A stretch of DNA of 64,000 nt from Escherichia phage alia, in the sequence record NC_052655.1, one strand, 5' to 3'. Under the pieces are notes generated by a model that was not told the origin of the DNA, made no database searches, and saw nothing but the letters and a program-made list of their open reading frames with translations. Positions 4,102-48,560 of the stretch are shown here, in pieces. The number at the start of each line of letters is the position of its first letter. Positions within the stretch are counted from its first letter, which is position 1. A program made the position numbers and the translations under genes.

Positions 4102-4464
4102 TTATTTCTCCTTATCATCATATTCTAGGAACATGTCTGCACGATATGCTTTACGCTCTTCAAACTTAGCAGGATTTACAACAATAAGCAATACAAGGTT
4201 AACATCTAAATACTTCTTAACAAATAGAAATAAATCTTTTCCACAGTTAAAACCTACACCAGTATAGGCATCCCCATATTGATCTACTGATTTAATCTTC
4301 TTACTAACCGTACATTCTATGCTATTCTTTTCTTCTTGGTATAAGGCTTTCCCACCCCAATATGTAAAGAATTTAGTACCGTCAGCACCAAGTTTAAAAC
4401 CTTCTGTTGCATGTCCAGCAAATGAAAGTAAACATAACCAAGTGATCATCAGGTACTTTAGCAT
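4102..4464 (-). CDS. hypothetical secreted or lipoprotein-like protein
   Basis: Track ORF trimmed to Met19; signal-like hydrophobic N-terminus MLKYLMITWLCLLSFAGHA. Confidence 0.45.
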   Translation of the reverse strand: MLKYLMITWLCLLSFAGHATEGFKLGADGTKFFTYWGGKALYQEEKNSIECTVSKKIKSVDQYGDAYTGVGFNCGKDLFLFVKKYLDVNLVLLIVVNPAKFEERKAYRADMFLEYDDKEK

Positions 4465-4465
4465 T

Positions 4466-4948
4466 TTAACCACCCAATTGCAAATGTTTAGAAAGAACAA
4501 TATCCCATTGATCACCACAACCGTTATCTATGCGGAACATAATGTACGTATCATCTTCTTCTACAATATACCGTACCTCATAGGAATTACAACAGCCTTC
4601 CCAATTTTTAACGGCTTCTGGTGTATGATGTGTAAGAATTTCATTACCATCATATGACCAAAACAAAGGAGTAAGGTTTTCGAAGGTCAGTGAAGTAGGG
4701 TTTACTTCATCTTTAACTGCTTCCTCATATTCTTTATGCGTTTGTACTGCTTTAGTTAGTGTACTCATGTCTATCTCCTTTTCTCCTTCTTGACTATGGA
4801 GGATAGCAAACTCTCTAAACTCCACTTCACGCCATGTTTTCAGGTAGTGCTTTATAATTTTATCAACATCTGCCTGTTCAACATTACTTTTCAAGCAATA
4901 GTAATCATGGTCTTCGCCCATTCTACCCCATATGCTATACATTGTCAT
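4466..4948 (-). CDS. hypothetical protein
   Basis: Track ORF 160 aa; AAGGA upstream of start. Confidence 0.5.
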   Translation of the reverse strand: MTMYSIWGRMGEDHDYYCLKSNVEQADVDKIIKHYLKTWREVEFREFAILHSQEGEKEIDMSTLTKAVQTHKEYEEAVKDEVNPTSLTFENLTPLFWSYDGNEILTHHTPEAVKNWEGCCNSYEVRYIVEEDDTYIMFRIDNGCGDQWDIVLSKHLQLGG

Positions 4949-5216
4949 CTGATTGATCCTTTACATTGTCCTTGGCATACACAGGAATAACATCATCATG
5001 ATCTTTATTACTTTCATCTGTTAAAGCCCAAAACAACTTACCTGCTGGATGTTTAAAGATGTAAGCAATAGGTTCCTCTTCCTGTGCTTCTTTGCTACGG
5101 ATGCCATCCCGCCAGGCAAGCCAAGTGTAGATCATCATCTCTTGACGTTCTTCTTCATTAGGCCACAGATGTGGTAGAAAGTTTTTATCAAACCATTGCT
5201 TAAACTCTTCAGTCAT
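4935..5216 (-). CDS. hypothetical protein
   Basis: Track ORF 93 aa. Confidence 0.5.
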   Translation of the reverse strand: MTEEFKQWFDKNFLPHLWPNEEERQEMMIYTWLAWRDGIRSKEAQEEEPIAYIFKHPAGKLFWALTDESNKDHDDVIPVYAKDNVKDQSDDNV

Positions 5217-5451
5217 AATCTACTCCTTAGCGTACAAAGTTAACTTCTGCTTCTTTCAGCTTTGACACTTCTACATAACCACCATGATCATCTTTAATCC
5301 ATTCTTTTCCTTTACGGATGATAACAGGGTAGGTAGAGTGAGTAAGTTTAGGTACAGATCTTTTTGTTTTAGTAATAGAAATGTTTTGCATAGTAGTCTC
5401 CTTAGTAAATTTTACATAGAGTCTAGCTTATTTAGTAGATAGAGTCAATAA

Positions 5452-5718
5452 CTAATTACTGTTAGATCTGTACTCTGTCTTCCATTCACAATGGTAAACT
5501 TCAACAGGTTCTAACTTCCAATGTTCAGGAACTAATTCAGGACAATATCTACAAAAGAGAAATAGATAGATAACTAAGACAGGTATTAAATAGTAAAATG
5601 GTATACGATCATAACCATACTTACGAGATAACATGTAGACATATAGATAGGGTATAACAATTAATCCTATAACTATAAGTAAGAAGAGAAGTATAAACCT
5701 TAGTGTAGTAACATCCAT
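5452..5718 (-). CDS. small membrane protein
   Basis: Track ORF 88 aa; two long hydrophobic segments; AGGAGAA RBS. Confidence 0.5.
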   Translation of the reverse strand: MDVTTLRFILLFLLIVIGLIVIPYLYVYMLSRKYGYDRIPFYYLIPVLVIYLFLFCRYCPELVPEHWKLEPVEVYHCEWKTEYRSNSN

Positions 5719-5784
5719 AGTATTCTCCTATACAGTAATATACTCTGTTCCTGCCCCTCCATGAGTGACAGGAACAATATCTAT

Positions 5785-5860
5785 AGAGAATACTAACTCG
5801 CTTCGCTCGTCACCTTTCAGGTTTAGGGTAGCATGTTTTTCTGAAAAAGTCAATACTCTC
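5785..5860. repeat. copy 1 of a ~75-bp non-coding element (GAATA..CTCGCT.TCGCTCG..TTAGGGTAGCATGTTTTT)
   Basis: Near-identical core AGGGTAGCATGTTTTT and flanks also at 32928-33000. Confidence 0.5.
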
Positions 5861-5882
5861 CACAAAACTTTACAAAATACTT

Positions 5883-6155
5883 TTACATAGGTACAACAGA
5901 GTCTGTTTTGAAGTCGTACATATGATTTACACCTGTGATTTTTGACATAGAGATTGCACGTTTAACACCTGCAATTACCTGGTCTGTCTTCTTAATCTCT
6001 TCACGGAACTTACGTACAGTTAGAGAGAAGAAACGATGATCCATCCATTGACGATTCACACGATCACGCTTGAAGTGACGGAAATCTTCAATCTGCTTAT
6101 TGCGCAATCGGCGCAGTACATGCAATAGTTGATAGTAAGGGTGTTTATTTTTCAT
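5883..6155 (-). CDS. small basic protein, possibly nucleic-acid binding
   Basis: Track ORF 90 aa, Arg/Lys rich. Confidence 0.5.
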   Translation of the reverse strand: MKNKHPYYQLLHVLRRLRNKQIEDFRHFKRDRVNRQWMDHRFFSLTVRKFREEIKKTDQVIAGVKRAISMSKITGVNHMYDFKTDSVVPM

Positions 6156-37318: not shown

Positions 37319-38131
37319 TTATTTAGTCAAATGATCTTCTATCATTTTTATGAAAGCAGGATTGCTAAAAGCATCTGCGGCTTTTTCTCGATAAACAAAG
37401 ACTCCTCTATCTTCGTAAAGAAGAGTTTCTTCGTAATTAATTCCTGGGTTAACAACAATCATTTTTGTACCCATATTAAGTGCAGGGAATAATTCCCAAT
37501 TAAAATTAATAACTTGGTTTGAACATCCTACTACAACAACCAAATCTTGCATGGTCAAAGTATCAAACAAGTGAGCCATATCTGCATACAAAGGTGCAGC
37601 CTCACCAAAAAATACAACATTAGGCTTCACCCAGTTATAATCATCTATGTTTATATTGTTGTAACCGATATCTACCAGTGTCTTGTAATCTCCAGGATGC
37701 ATACGATAAACTACTTCAGGAAGATATCCGTGCACGTGAATAACAGAATTTCTGTCTACACCTGCTCGCTCTAGTAGATCATCAACGTTTGTTGTCAAGT
37801 TTACTATTTGGTTAGGATATTCCTTAAACCACTTTGCTATTTGAATATGTGCAGCATTAGGTTGTACATCTTTAAGCTCAACACGTCTTTTGTTATAAAA
37901 TTCGTGTGTTTTGGCATACAAATCCATACCGTTTTCGTCTACACCACCAACCACTGGAAGATCTGGAGATGTTCTCACACGATAACCTGCTTGGAAAGCT
38001 CCAATATCGCAGATCTCTTCTAAATCATATTCTTCCCATAAAGCACGACCACTATCTGTGTCTGTTCGGAATGTTCGAATCCCACTGTCTGCACTTAAAC
38101 CTGCGCCACTGACAAAAATTACTCTTCGCAT
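37319..38131 (-). CDS. Sir2-like (sirtuin fold) NAD-binding protein without zinc ribbon
   Basis: GAGLSADSGIRTFR, TTNVDDL, HG and VVFFGE motifs; no CxxC pairs. Confidence 0.65.
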   Translation of the reverse strand: MRRVIFVSGAGLSADSGIRTFRTDTDSGRALWEEYDLEEICDIGAFQAGYRVRTSPDLPVVGGVDENGMDLYAKTHEFYNKRRVELKDVQPNAAHIQIAKWFKEYPNQIVNLTTNVDDLLERAGVDRNSVIHVHGYLPEVVYRMHPGDYKTLVDIGYNNINIDDYNWVKPNVVFFGEAAPLYADMAHLFDTLTMQDLVVVVGCSNQVINFNWELFPALNMGTKMIVVNPGINYEETLLYEDRGVFVYREKAADAFSNPAFIKMIEDHLTK

Positions 38132-42295: not shown

Positions 42296-42616
42296 TTAAC
42301 AAGTAATATTAGGAATAATACTGGGAGTAACAATTGGAGTAATAGGGTACGTAAACCAAGGGCTTCCAATTTCCCAAGGACTATAAGGTGTACGAGGATC
42401 AAATGGAGGCGTTACTTGAGGCTTTTTCCAAATCTCCGCTAGTTGTTTCTTCCATTTATCCCTTGCTGTATCGTTATCTTCATCCAACTGTTCGTCATTA
42501 TCTTTTATTTCTGATTTTGGAAATAAAAGCTCTTTGACTAACTCAACGTCTTCCGTTTCAATAGTAGTTTCTTTCGTAATATTCCCTACCGTCTCTTTAA
42601 TTGTGACTTTATACAT
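42296..42616 (-). CDS. hypothetical protein
   Basis: Track ORF 106 aa. Confidence 0.5.
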   Translation of the reverse strand: MYKVTIKETVGNITKETTIETEDVELVKELLFPKSEIKDNDEQLDEDNDTARDKWKKQLAEIWKKPQVTPPFDPRTPYSPWEIGSPWFTYPITPIVTPSIIPNITC

Positions 42617-43362
42617 TAGTCCTCCTCTAAAGTAGAATAAAATTGTAACGTATTTGAATCATCAAAATATGCAAAGGTTAAATTACCATTGAAGCAAGAT
42701 CCTGTATCCATATATACCCTATTACTGCTAATTACAGGTTTAGGAACATAAGAATGCCCGTGAAATACATAATCTACTCCTGAAACTCTAGGAAGAAGAA
42801 TCCCTTCAAGGGCGCAATCTATCATATCACGATCCCACATTAAAGATTCTGTGAATCGAGATACTTGTTCTTTATTCATATTCGAACAAAATGGCAAAAC
42901 TTCCGTCACTGGTAGATGTTCCAAAACTGAAGGATATCCTCCGTGAATAAAGCCTAGTTTCATATTACGATAATTGACAACAAGTACAACAGGTAAGTCT
43001 TCTAGCATCAAAGCAAGAGCAGTTGCACCTTCTTCTCCACACTCGTTTAGAACTGTATGGCCTCCGTTCTGAAACCAACATTCGTAATATCGCCTATCAC
43101 CTTCTAGCAACCCTTTAATCATCATATCTTCGTGATTTCCACGAATAGCATAGCGATTTAGCTTTCTGGTGAATTCAACGGTACAACGAAAATTCTGCTT
43201 GCCGCGATCTGTAAGATCTCCTAAAGATACAACAACATCTTGATCTCGAATACCTAAAGTATTAACACCTTTCTGGTATAAATCAAAGCAACCATGTAAA
43301 TCACCAATAATAAACAGGTCTTGATCATCTTTTACACTAATTTCTTGATATACTAGCATCAA
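42616..43362 (-). CDS. PPP-family Ser/Thr protein phosphatase (calcineurin-like)
   Basis: GDLHG, GDLTDRG and GNHE motifs. Confidence 0.8.
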   Translation of the reverse strand: MMLVYQEISVKDDQDLFIIGDLHGCFDLYQKGVNTLGIRDQDVVVSLGDLTDRGKQNFRCTVEFTRKLNRYAIRGNHEDMMIKGLLEGDRRYYECWFQNGGHTVLNECGEEGATALALMLEDLPVVLVVNYRNMKLGFIHGGYPSVLEHLPVTEVLPFCSNMNKEQVSRFTESLMWDRDMIDCALEGILLPRVSGVDYVFHGHSYVPKPVISSNRVYMDTGSCFNGNLTFAYFDDSNTLQFYSTLEED

Positions 43363-46626: not shown

Positions 46627-47280
46627 TTAATTATCAGAGGATACTTTATCAAGTTTTTCAGAGACTGTCAATACTTTTTCTTGTGATTCTTTCATTTCTG
46701 CTAAAATACTTTCAGCTTCATCACTATCAGGATCACCAGTCAACAGCATACTAATTAGTTGCTCCTTGCTGAAGTTCAGAATATCTTCCGCTGTTAGCTC
46801 CAGTTGTTCTTCGATCTCTTCGACAAAAGTTTCACCGCCTGAAAAAGCATCTCGTAGTTTTGCAACTTCCATCGCTTCTTCTGGGGTTGCCCCAGCGTCT
46901 AAAGCTGCTAAAGCAAAATCTGCCCCACTACCAACAGCATAGTAATCTTCAGTTAAAGGATATGCTCGCGTTGGATTATTACCCTCGTGCATATAAATTT
47001 TACCGTCTGGGTGAACAACCAATGCCACAAACTCTTCATCTTCTTTATCAGGATCTGACTGGATCACCAAACCTGGGATTGTCTCTTGTGCTGCCTGGCA
47101 CTGTAAGTTTTGTTCGAACCAAGAAAAGAAAGTCAGGATAGAAGACAGACGTCCTGCACCACCAACAAGGTAATCCCCAATTTTACGCACTTTCTTGAAA
47201 TTTAAAGTGTCTACTCGATTACCTACTGTTACTTTACCATCAGATAGAATTTTGTTATGTGTTGCAATAATTGTTGTCAT
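46627..47280 (-). CDS. HslV-like Ntn-hydrolase peptidase (proteasome beta fold)
   Basis: N-terminal MTTIIAT (Thr after Met), GNRV..FKKVRKI, GGAG, AVGSGADFALAA align with HslV landmarks; acidic C-terminal extension. Confidence 0.6.
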   Translation of the reverse strand: MTTIIATHNKILSDGKVTVGNRVDTLNFKKVRKIGDYLVGGAGRLSSILTFFSWFEQNLQCQAAQETIPGLVIQSDPDKEDEEFVALVVHPDGKIYMHEGNNPTRAYPLTEDYYAVGSGADFALAALDAGATPEEAMEVAKLRDAFSGGETFVEEIEEQLELTAEDILNFSKEQLISMLLTGDPDSDEAESILAEMKESQEKVLTVSEKLDKVSSDN

Positions 47281-47771
47281 TGTACTTCCTCCTGTAGTGT
47301 TTTAAGGACTGCTTTACCACCGCTTACATACTTACGTAGGTAATCAATAGCTCTTAGTGTTTCTTTATCCACAAGAATCTTATTAGTTCTTGTCAATGGG
47401 TGATTCAGTAAGTCACTGCAATTTCTTACTAACATAGATTTCTTGTGAAAGATACTGCTAAGAAAAAGAAGTTTAGAATCTTCTTCATCAATCAGGAGTA
47501 GTTCTGAATTAGACCCAGCTACATTTATTATACACTCAAACAAGCCTTCTTGACTATCAGATAATTCCTGGTAATATTTAGTTAGCCAATCCTCTCCTTT
47601 TAACCAACTAAAAAACATCTGAACTTTTTGCAAAGTTGTCATGTTCTCTAAACGAAGAGATATTTCTTTTTCAATCTTGTCAATATAAATCTGTCTAAAC
47701 TCATTCGGCTTAACTAAGCCAGCTTGATAGCATTCATCAATACCATTGCGATCAATCTCAATTAGCGTCAT
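47277..47771 (-). CDS. hypothetical protein
   Basis: Track ORF 164 aa. Confidence 0.5.
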   Translation of the reverse strand: MTLIEIDRNGIDECYQAGLVKPNEFRQIYIDKIEKEISLRLENMTTLQKVQMFFSWLKGEDWLTKYYQELSDSQEGLFECIINVAGSNSELLLIDEEDSKLLFLSSIFHKKSMLVRNCSDLLNHPLTRTNKILVDKETLRAIDYLRKYVSGGKAVLKTLQEEVQ

Positions 47772-47807
47772 TTAACCTCCATAACAGGCATCCTTGCCTT
47801 GTAATTA

Positions 47808-48560
47808 TTAATATACTTCCGTGATGAACTGAGACAAACGGGAACGTTGGTTATCAGCAGTTGTCATTTCAACATAACCAATAAAATCTACAATAGCTTC
47901 CCTTTCTCCTTCTTCGTTAATAGGAACAACACGATCTAACAAATCACCTAACCCGTTAGCTCTTCGTTTAATTGCATATGTTTGATTAACATCACCCATA
48001 ATGACAATACGTGTATTAAGACCTGCTCGCTCAAGGAGAAGTTTTACTGTGTTTGGTGACATAAGTTGAACTTCATCAATAAGAATAATGCTGTTATCCC
48101 ACGTAGCACCTAGTGCATAGTTCGGAATATTAAGTTCAATTTTTCCACTTGCAATATCGTTTTCCAATTTATTTGCAGTCATAAACTGTTGGAAAATTCT
48201 TTTAGTTGACTCGTAGTGTGCTGCTAGTTTATCAGTCTTATCTCCAGATAAGAAACCGATTTGGTCATCACCTACTTCTGTCGGGTTTTTAAGGAAAATC
48301 AACTTTCTGAAGTCACCAGCTTTAAGCATTTGCAATGCTTTCCATAGTGCTGTTGTCGTTTTTCCTGTTCCTGCTGGGGCATTAACAATGGTTAAATCAT
48401 TCCAAACCATGCTTCTTACAATAGCTTCTTGATTCCCAACAGGGGTAAATTCATCAAGACGGTAATCATCATTTCCTACTGCTTTAGCCGCATAACGACT
48501 GGCACGTTTGTCATCATTGGCTGCTGATTGACGACGAGCCTTTGCGGTTTTATTTCCCAT
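47808..48560 (-). CDS. phoH: PhoH-like ATPase
   Basis: Walker A GTGKTTTAL; PhoH-like length and layout. Confidence 0.75.
   Translation of the reverse strand: MGNKTAKARRQSAANDDKRASRYAAKAVGNDDYRLDEFTPVGNQEAIVRSMVWNDLTIVNAPAGTGKTTTALWKALQMLKAGDFRKLIFLKNPTEVGDDQIGFLSGDKTDKLAAHYESTKRIFQQFMTANKLENDIASGKIELNIPNYALGATWDNSIILIDEVQLMSPNTVKLLLERAGLNTRIVIMGDVNQTYAIKRRANGLGDLLDRVVPINEEGEREAIVDFIGYVEMTTADNQRSRLSQFITEVY

Follow-up and report, generated by a model that had tools for sequence, protein, structure and literature searches.

The pocket of HslV that receives HslU's C-terminal tail is lined by F54, F57, A79, K80 and Q114 (PMC6429459), and R86, R89 and K90 of HslV make up a basic cluster of functional importance, whose place in the HslU-independent HslV descendant BPH is taken by an acidic pore loop (PMC5777263). 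A further group of homologues, the PPH/RPC family, was described in 2021 by Fuchs, Alva & Lupas (reference sequences WP_042125023.1 for PPH and WP_140207863 for RPC); it 'lacks the second helix (H2)', and the authors found neither a co-occurring AAA+ interactor nor any clue to function (PMC8665760). Such orphan proteasome homologues (BPH, Anbu and PPH/RPC) pose a standing puzzle, a perfect active site without a known substrate, partner or role. Here we analyse a phage gene that most likely belongs to this last family. It lies on the minus strand at positions 46627-47280 of a 64,000-nucleotide stretch of Escherichia phage alia (sequence record NC_052655.1), which we call the window.

An earlier note on this DNA had described the gene as an HslV-like protease without an adjacent HslU, and had proposed that the product hijacks the host's HslU or acts as a decoy. 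On balance, we instead favour an accessory and catalytically active threonine peptidase of the PPH/RPC type that works independently of HslU, probably as a ring with an acidic, H2-less entrance and a modular C-terminal arm facing outwards. The gene, its family and its missing unfoldase partner have already been described, so that this part of the note is correct but not new. Indeed, phi92-like E. coli myoviruses (Justusliebigvirus, Stephanstirmvirinae) match the window at 98-99% identity, and the gene corresponds to Phi92_gp058, which falls in the same 90% cluster as the window protease. The identical protein is present in NCBI and UniRef as 'peptidase HslV family' or '20S proteasome', the gene is labelled 'putative proteasome component' in the BASEL phages, and the occurrence of HslV without HslU in a phage has been remarked upon in genome papers (PMC7823757).

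The open reading frame is genuine, with 217 codons and a stop and a strong ribosome-binding site (a Shine-Dalgarno sequence, AGGAGG, read at 47288-47293 on the minus strand, 7 nt before the ATG); the one correction needed is that it runs on the minus strand. Its ATG is the first start codon past the upstream stop, making a longer N-terminal extension impossible, and the product begins MTTIIAT, as previously noted. The threonine at position 2 therefore cannot be internal. The protein has the proteasome-beta/HslV Ntn-hydrolase fold with no propeptide. It matched PHROG 1040 ('peptidase HslV family') with an E-value of 1.5e-62, residues 1-212 aligning to profile positions 14-214 of 277, and passed the Pfam Proteasome model PF00227 marginally (24.4 bits against a gathering score of 22.4). 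The single sequence matched HslV chains in the PDB with HMMER at E-values down to 2.4e-7, and a family profile reached 5.7e-12, with residues 2-155 aligned to HslV residues 1-170; no BPH chain was among the 60 matches listed for this profile at E≤0.01. The predicted structure matched the proteasome-beta/HslV fold with a Foldseek probability of 1.0. The segments that had first suggested HslV (GN.V..KKVR, GGAG and GSGADFA) are likewise seen in HMMER and MAFFT alignments with HslV. The catalytic core comprises residues 1-156 (46813-47280, minus strand) and is predicted to form the Ntn-hydrolase alpha-beta-beta-alpha sandwich without helix H2; overall identity to E. coli HslV is 28%.

Relatives were collected by a phmmer scan of 1.84 billion cluster representatives, which returned 2051 at E≤1e-3; the best 150 of these, clustered at ≤50% identity, were analysed. 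They split into short forms of about 130-160 residues and long forms of at least 180, the window protease being one of the latter. All relatives tested against the PHROGs belong to PHROG 1040, and those of 134-150 residues match the window protease at E-values of 1e-15 to 1e-10.

The active site is conserved across this set. MAFFT alignment with E. coli HslV equates T2, D14 and K30 with Thr1, Asp17 and Lys33, G43 with Gly48, and residues 117-119 with Gly123-Ser124-Gly125, so that both Thr1 and Lys33, whose absence would have spoken against the assignment, are intact, together with the Asp17 equivalent. The corresponding codons, all on the minus strand, lie at 47275-47277 (Thr2), 47239-47241 (Asp14), 47191-47193 (Lys30) and 46927-46929 (Ser118). 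These seven residues (T2, D14, K30, G43, G117, S118 and G119) are invariant in an alignment of 29 relatives and 92-100% conserved in the 150 representatives, with 85-100% as the figure for the six other than G43. Thr occupies position 2 in 139 of the 142 non-gapped representatives, with Ser in the other three, and the N-terminus reads MTT in 119/150. Asp14 is found in 147/148 and Lys30 in all 150, G43 is conserved in 150/151 sequences, and within the GSG motif G117 is present in 151/151, S118 as Ser or Thr in 145/151 and G119 in 149/151. The equivalents of Asp17, Lys33 and the Gly-Ser-Gly motif are under strong purifying selection, and Thr would become the exposed nucleophile once the initiator Met is cleaved off.

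This conservation bears directly on the decoy proposal, whereby an inactive protein would titrate HslU or co-assemble with host HslV and so stop HslVU proteolysis. An orphan HslV-like subunit is what such a model calls for, and the acidic tail could in principle, if speculatively, engage host factors. However, an inert decoy has no need of a catalytic apparatus that is near-invariant over some 150 representatives, and this points to selection for catalysis. In addition, the surface that HslU would recognise is the least conserved part of the protein, and 28% identity to E. coli HslV makes mixed rings unlikely. We therefore regard the decoy as very improbable.

Outside the active site the protein departs from HslV in several respects. 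It scored 34.5 bits against the NCBIfam HslV equivalog model NF003964 (cutoff 137) and 32.2 against TIGR03692 (cutoff 157.75). Relative to HslV it carries deletions of 4, 2 and 9 residues; in the AlphaFold2 model, a helix at residues 45-67 is followed by a proline-containing coil (68-83) where HslV has H2, and then by a strand (84-89). The motif ELAKDWRTDR, present in both E. coli and T. maritima HslV, is missing. At the pore entrance, the positions of HslV L88, R89 and K90 are taken by an acidic triplet, D81-E82-E83 (47032-47040, minus strand): L88 is replaced by an invariant Asp, R89 by Glu and K90 by Glu or Asp. Among the 29 close relatives, position 82 is acidic in 29/29 and position 83 in 27/29, and the region stays mostly acidic over the 150 representatives. 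Of the residues lining the HslU-tail pocket, F57 is kept and F54 becomes Leu, whereas A79, K80 and Q114 are variable or changed; the equivalents of HslV K80, Q114 and K28 vary within the phage family itself. On these sequence criteria the window protease is not an HslV orthologue. By its shared traits it most likely belongs to the PPH/RPC family.

These departures also weaken the proposal that the phage hijacks HslU, in which a hexameric double ring of phage subunits would dock onto the host unfoldase and receive substrates from it into the phage proteolytic chamber. That HslV is the closest solved family by sequence, that no phage unfoldase is present, that all known hosts possess hslVU and that helix H1 retains F57, with Leu for F54, are all compatible with such docking. 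Nevertheless, the phage protein lacks H2, which in HslV provides one wall of the HslU-tail pocket (A79 and K80) and bears ELAKDWRTDR; the equivalents of K80, Q114 and K28 vary within the family, the charge of the pore cluster is reversed at R89 and K90, and the score falls some 100 bits below the HslV equivalog cutoffs. A literature search for a contact between HslV Lys28 and the HslU carboxylate brought up nothing of relevance, and that contact is given no weight here. Furthermore, BPH, an HslV descendant that likewise has a non-conserved HslU interface and an acidic pore, failed to pull down HslU (PMC5777263). Taken together, these features make the hijacking of host HslU unlikely.

If the protease does not use host HslU, a partner might be encoded by the phage. 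The claim that no HslU lies next to the gene held up, and for the window as a whole: E. coli HslU found no match by tblastn at E≤10 (the query sequence matches PDB 1g4a at 956 bits). Nor was an HslU homologue found in phi92-like genomes when phage records were searched by tblastn. Only four 'Escherichia' phage records matched E. coli HslU, as against 105 with the protease gene, and the phages with HslU-like genes are mainly jumbo phages of Erwinia and Salmonella. The open reading frame at 9617-10744, singled out earlier as the only AAA+ ATPase in the window, is indeed the only one of AAA type found, although a PhoH-type P-loop ATPase is encoded in addition at 47808-48560. The AAA+ protein belongs to PHROG 2376, matches classical AAA/Cdc48-type domains, and is encoded about 36 kb from the protease gene on the opposite strand. 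PHROG 2376 occurs in 378 phage records, more than 200 of them from phages of Gram-positive bacteria that lack the protease; most records are from Enterococcus, Bacillus, Staphylococcus, Lactococcus and Lactobacillus phages, none of which is among the protease matches. Conversely, Vibrio phage qdvp001, which carries the protease, has no member of PHROG 2376 in its 134.7-kb record. Since each gene occurs without the other, the two are inherited independently in both directions, and we rejected the AAA+ protein as a dedicated unfoldase partner. A second candidate, gp140 of qdvp001 (L012, 22981-25155), is a 724-residue ClpA/ClpB-like double-AAA+ protein also present in the protease-bearing phage VnaP and in many jumbo phages. 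Phi92-like phages have no counterpart, and its restriction to a few Vibrio phages and jumbo phages led us to reject it as a general partner. We conclude that the protease is accompanied by no HslU gene and by no other dedicated AAA+ gene.

Two genes upstream of the protease, on the same strand, lies the gene for the PhoH-like P-loop ATPase (47808-48560, minus strand; Pfam PhoH, 1.4e-35). Between the two is a gene for a 164-residue protein (47277-47771, minus strand; PHROG 14834), whose TGA stop overlaps the protease start as ATGA, coupling the two translationally. The 164-residue protein is modelled as all-alpha with a mean predicted local distance difference test (pLDDT) score of 92.7, and a structural-neighbour search gave nothing informative. 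Its gene stands beside the protease only within Stephanstirmvirinae; Klebsiella phage KP13-16 has a version with 40% identity. By comparison, phoH lies upstream on the same strand in 9/9 long-form lineages inspected, with 0-6 unrelated open reading frames in between, whereas four short-form contexts showed no phoH link, and the short-form contigs, which are mostly short, revealed no recurring partner gene. Since much of this synteny lies in a collinear ancestral block (ribonucleotide reductase, glutaredoxin, lysozyme, phoH), we take it as an association and not as evidence of a functional pair.

A natural deletion affects all three genes at once. Phage VEcB (NC_052663.1) has lost about 1.12 kb between 8-bp repeats, corresponding to 47095-48216 of the window (blastn breakpoints with an 8-bp overlap), such that PhoH residues 1-115 are fused in frame to protease residues 63-217. 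The loss takes the C-terminal half of PhoH, the whole 164-residue gene and protease residues 1-62, including Thr1, Asp14 and Lys30. A record of the same species, OZ035773.1, has an intact protease gene. VEcB, deposited as a complete-genome isolate, is in effect a natural triple knock-out; if the deletion did not arise as an artefact of assembly, PhoH, the 164-residue protein and the protease are non-essential for laboratory propagation.

The partner could then be one of the phage's own NTPases, either PhoH, acting with small proteins such as the 164-residue one, or the AAA+ protein at 9617-10744. The nine long-form lineages with phoH upstream include two metagenomic phages, one of which has different other neighbours, and both the translational coupling and the simultaneous loss of the three genes in VEcB fit a joint function; for the AAA+ protein, its classical AAA/Cdc48-type domains fit an unfoldase. 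PhoH-type proteins are, however, RNA- or helicase-related P-loop ATPases, with none known to act as an unfoldase. The synteny may simply reflect shared ancestry, short forms do not sit beside phoH and the 164-residue protein is confined to one subfamily, while the AAA+ gene is remote and separately inherited. We consider a phage NTPase partner distinctly unlikely. A bolder version of the idea, that long-form PPH, the PhoH-like ATPase and small lineage-specific proteins make up a functional phage module whose C-terminal hairpin docks PhoH or nucleic-acid-bound complexes, we would rate as a long shot. If true, cells would have no counterpart of this protease, which would be NTP-coupled or targeted to RNA/DNA and might serve host takeover or counter-defence.

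To return to the HslU-independent peptidase that we favour, the C-terminal extension is a further feature that sets it apart from HslV. The 35-residue acidic tail reported earlier exists, with 11 Asp or Glu and 4 Lys or Arg in residues 183-217 (46630-46734, minus strand), but the extension past the HslV core is in fact 61 residues long (157-217) and has a net charge of -12. Its proximal part, residues 157-182 (46735-46812, minus strand), is assigned as a helical hairpin from the predicted structure and a conserved motif: residues 161-182 form two short helices in the model (164-169 and 172-181), and the motif L-T-x-E-x(5)-[ST]-K-E-[EQ]-L-[IL] is shared by every long form, whether of Escherichia, Vibrio, Aeromonas, Shewanella or metagenomic phages. 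Conservation falls steeply along the protein, mean identity among 58 relatives being 81% in the core, 49% in the hairpin and 22% in the tail. Across these relatives the tail varies between 15 and 48 residues in length but remains negatively charged throughout, and in the model its pLDDT drops to 47-67. The conserved charge, variable sequence and low model confidence fit a disordered acidic arm.

More distant long forms go on beyond the acidic part with other modules, as in the C-terminal regions of P0061, P0069 and P0083. By eye, some of these forms carry a zinc-ribbon-like segment, Cys-x2-Cys...Cys-x2-Cys, followed by a Trp-rich domain past an acidic linker, whereas a helix-extended-helix-like motif closes the protein in others, which come from Vibrio, Shewanella and Aeromonas phages. 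A Pfam search of the C-terminal extensions in long homologues found no known domain. The appendage looks modular, consistent with an outward-facing adaptor of the kind suggested for RPC (PMC8665760).

The wider setting of the gene is a long minus-strand block concerned with replication and nucleotide metabolism, outside the head-morphogenesis module. The block includes genes for ribonucleotide reductase, dTDP-rhamnose enzymes, thioredoxin, lysozyme, PhoH, methyltransferases, a NinI-like phosphatase, Sir2, thymidylate synthase, an exonuclease and a helicase. Around the protease gene, counts from a promoter and terminator scan were at shuffle expectation, and the hairpin after the stop codon was no better than in shuffles (z -0.8). 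This setting also bears on the suggestion that the protein is the prohead protease, active in head maturation. On the metagenomic contig SRR12927082_22233 (L017, 6317-7131), a 145-residue short form directly follows genes for terminase, an SU10-type portal and Cpn10 (GroES-like) and precedes probable head genes, which is the usual slot of a prohead protease. Against this single case, in the window and in all long-form phages the gene belongs to the arm for nucleotide metabolism and replication and is far removed from the portal and capsid genes (about 40 kb from both in qdvp001), and VEcB has a complete-genome record despite the loss of its active site. A role as the prohead protease is scarcely credible.

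Several other genes of the window and its relatives deserve mention. In JGI temperate-phage contigs (L018-L020) and in KP13-16 (L006, 4369-5145), which are unrelated phages, a PPH-type gene, short or long, is immediately followed by an overlapping gene for a metallophosphatase of the Ser/Thr phosphatase-like type; in the window, the NinI-like phosphatase gene lies at 42616-43362, about 3 kb downstream of the protease. Directly after the AAA+ gene, positions 10819-12216 encode a 465-residue CapR-repeat/T5orf172 homing-endonuclease-like protein, followed at 12217-12768 by a NADAR-domain protein, and a Sir2-like gene is found at 37319-38131. The NADAR, Sir2-like and neighbouring genes suggest functions related to NAD and ADP-ribose, possibly in counter-defence. 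Aeromonas phage 4L372D (L003) has two adjacent PHROG 1040 paralogues, of 183 residues (4432-4983) and 294 residues (5001-5885); in the shorter, Thr2, Asp and Lys are kept, but the GSG motif is changed to GCG. Such a pair might form a phage proteasome homologue that is hetero-oligomeric.

Protease homologues are present in 165 phage records, 105 of them named 'Escherichia', and the hosts of these phages are E. coli, Klebsiella, Vibrio, Aeromonas and Shewanella. All are gammaproteobacteria, which possess hslVU. Three public records, MG065639.1, MG065689.1 and MG065656.1 ('Campylobacter phage' A150, A110a and C3), share 98-99% identity with E. coli phi92-like phages throughout this region; they are probably mislabelled as to host, or else contaminated. 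As regards the family at large, the text of PMC8665760 restricts PPH to Proteobacteria, whereas its Table 1 also lists Actinobacteria, PVC and other bacteria and leaves HslV unmarked for Actinobacteria. Should the table be correct, some hosts with PPH have no HslU.

The results suggest a model in which removal of the initiator Met exposes Thr and yields an active threonine peptidase. This would act without HslU, probably as a self-assembling ring like BPH or an uncapped 20S proteasome, with an acidic, H2-less entrance open to peptides or to proteins that are unfolded or disordered. The C-terminal arm, built from the hairpin and fast-evolving acidic tail here and from other modules in relatives, would project outwards as an adaptor, targeting or regulatory element. 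For the phage, the protease would be accessory and not essential.

A number of points weigh against this model. Without H2, rings might form differently or not at all, and the authors who defined the family warned that some homologues may have unprecedented quaternary structures (PMC8665760). Independence from HslU is deduced from missing sequence elements, yet the pocket residue F57 is kept and the change of F54 to Leu is conservative; nor does host distribution discriminate, every known host having HslU. Synthesis of the protease in the early or middle phase of infection would be expected from gene position only. In the literature, we found no experimental work on PPH/RPC proteins since their description in 2021. 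Finally, a conserved triad is no guarantee of activity on ordinary substrates, since BPH and Anbu, the closest characterised orphans, are inert in standard peptidase assays (for BPH, PMC5777263). The protein might even be a non-proteolytic Ntn enzyme, for instance an amidase with a non-protein substrate or, like connectase, a sequence-specific ligase or transpeptidase; we think this quite improbable.

The window protease nonetheless offers a convenient point of entry. The window copy is a gene of a lytic E. coli K-12 phage with close relatives in the BASEL collection, and a deletion variant, VEcB, has been deposited. With hosts deleted for hslU or hslV and purified HslU readily available, this makes a tractable system in which to study the role of a viral proteasome homologue and its need, if any, for an unfoldase.

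How, then, does the window protease compare with known systems? HslV forms a dodecameric double ring activated by the inserted C-terminal tails of HslU. The phage protein shares with it an N-terminal Thr nucleophile without a propeptide, together with Asp17, Lys33 and Ser124 with its flanking glycines, but differs in its equivalog scores, in the lack of an hslU partner gene and of H2 with its ELAKDWRTDR motif, in the acidic residues at R89 and K90 and in the 61-residue extension. Unlike the beta subunit of the 20S proteasome, it lacks a propeptide, an alpha-ring partner, H2 and the C-terminal S12/H5 elements. BPH, which retains H2, has a long acidic pore loop, assembles into heptameric double rings and is encoded by a chromosomal bacterial gene, is analogous only in the acidic character of its pore region. 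The closest likeness is to PPH/RPC, with which it has several traits in common: both have a compact core lacking H2 and a conserved Thr1/Asp17/Lys33 triad, neither has a propeptide or an AAA+ protein that co-occurs with it, and both are encoded by tailed phages and prophages of proteobacteria. At 217 residues it is longer than a typical PPH (about 140 residues), and its C-terminal extension, facing away from the presumed ring, resembles that of RPC; yet RPC is listed only for Proteobacteria in PMC8665760, whereas the long form found in the window is plainly encoded by lytic phages.

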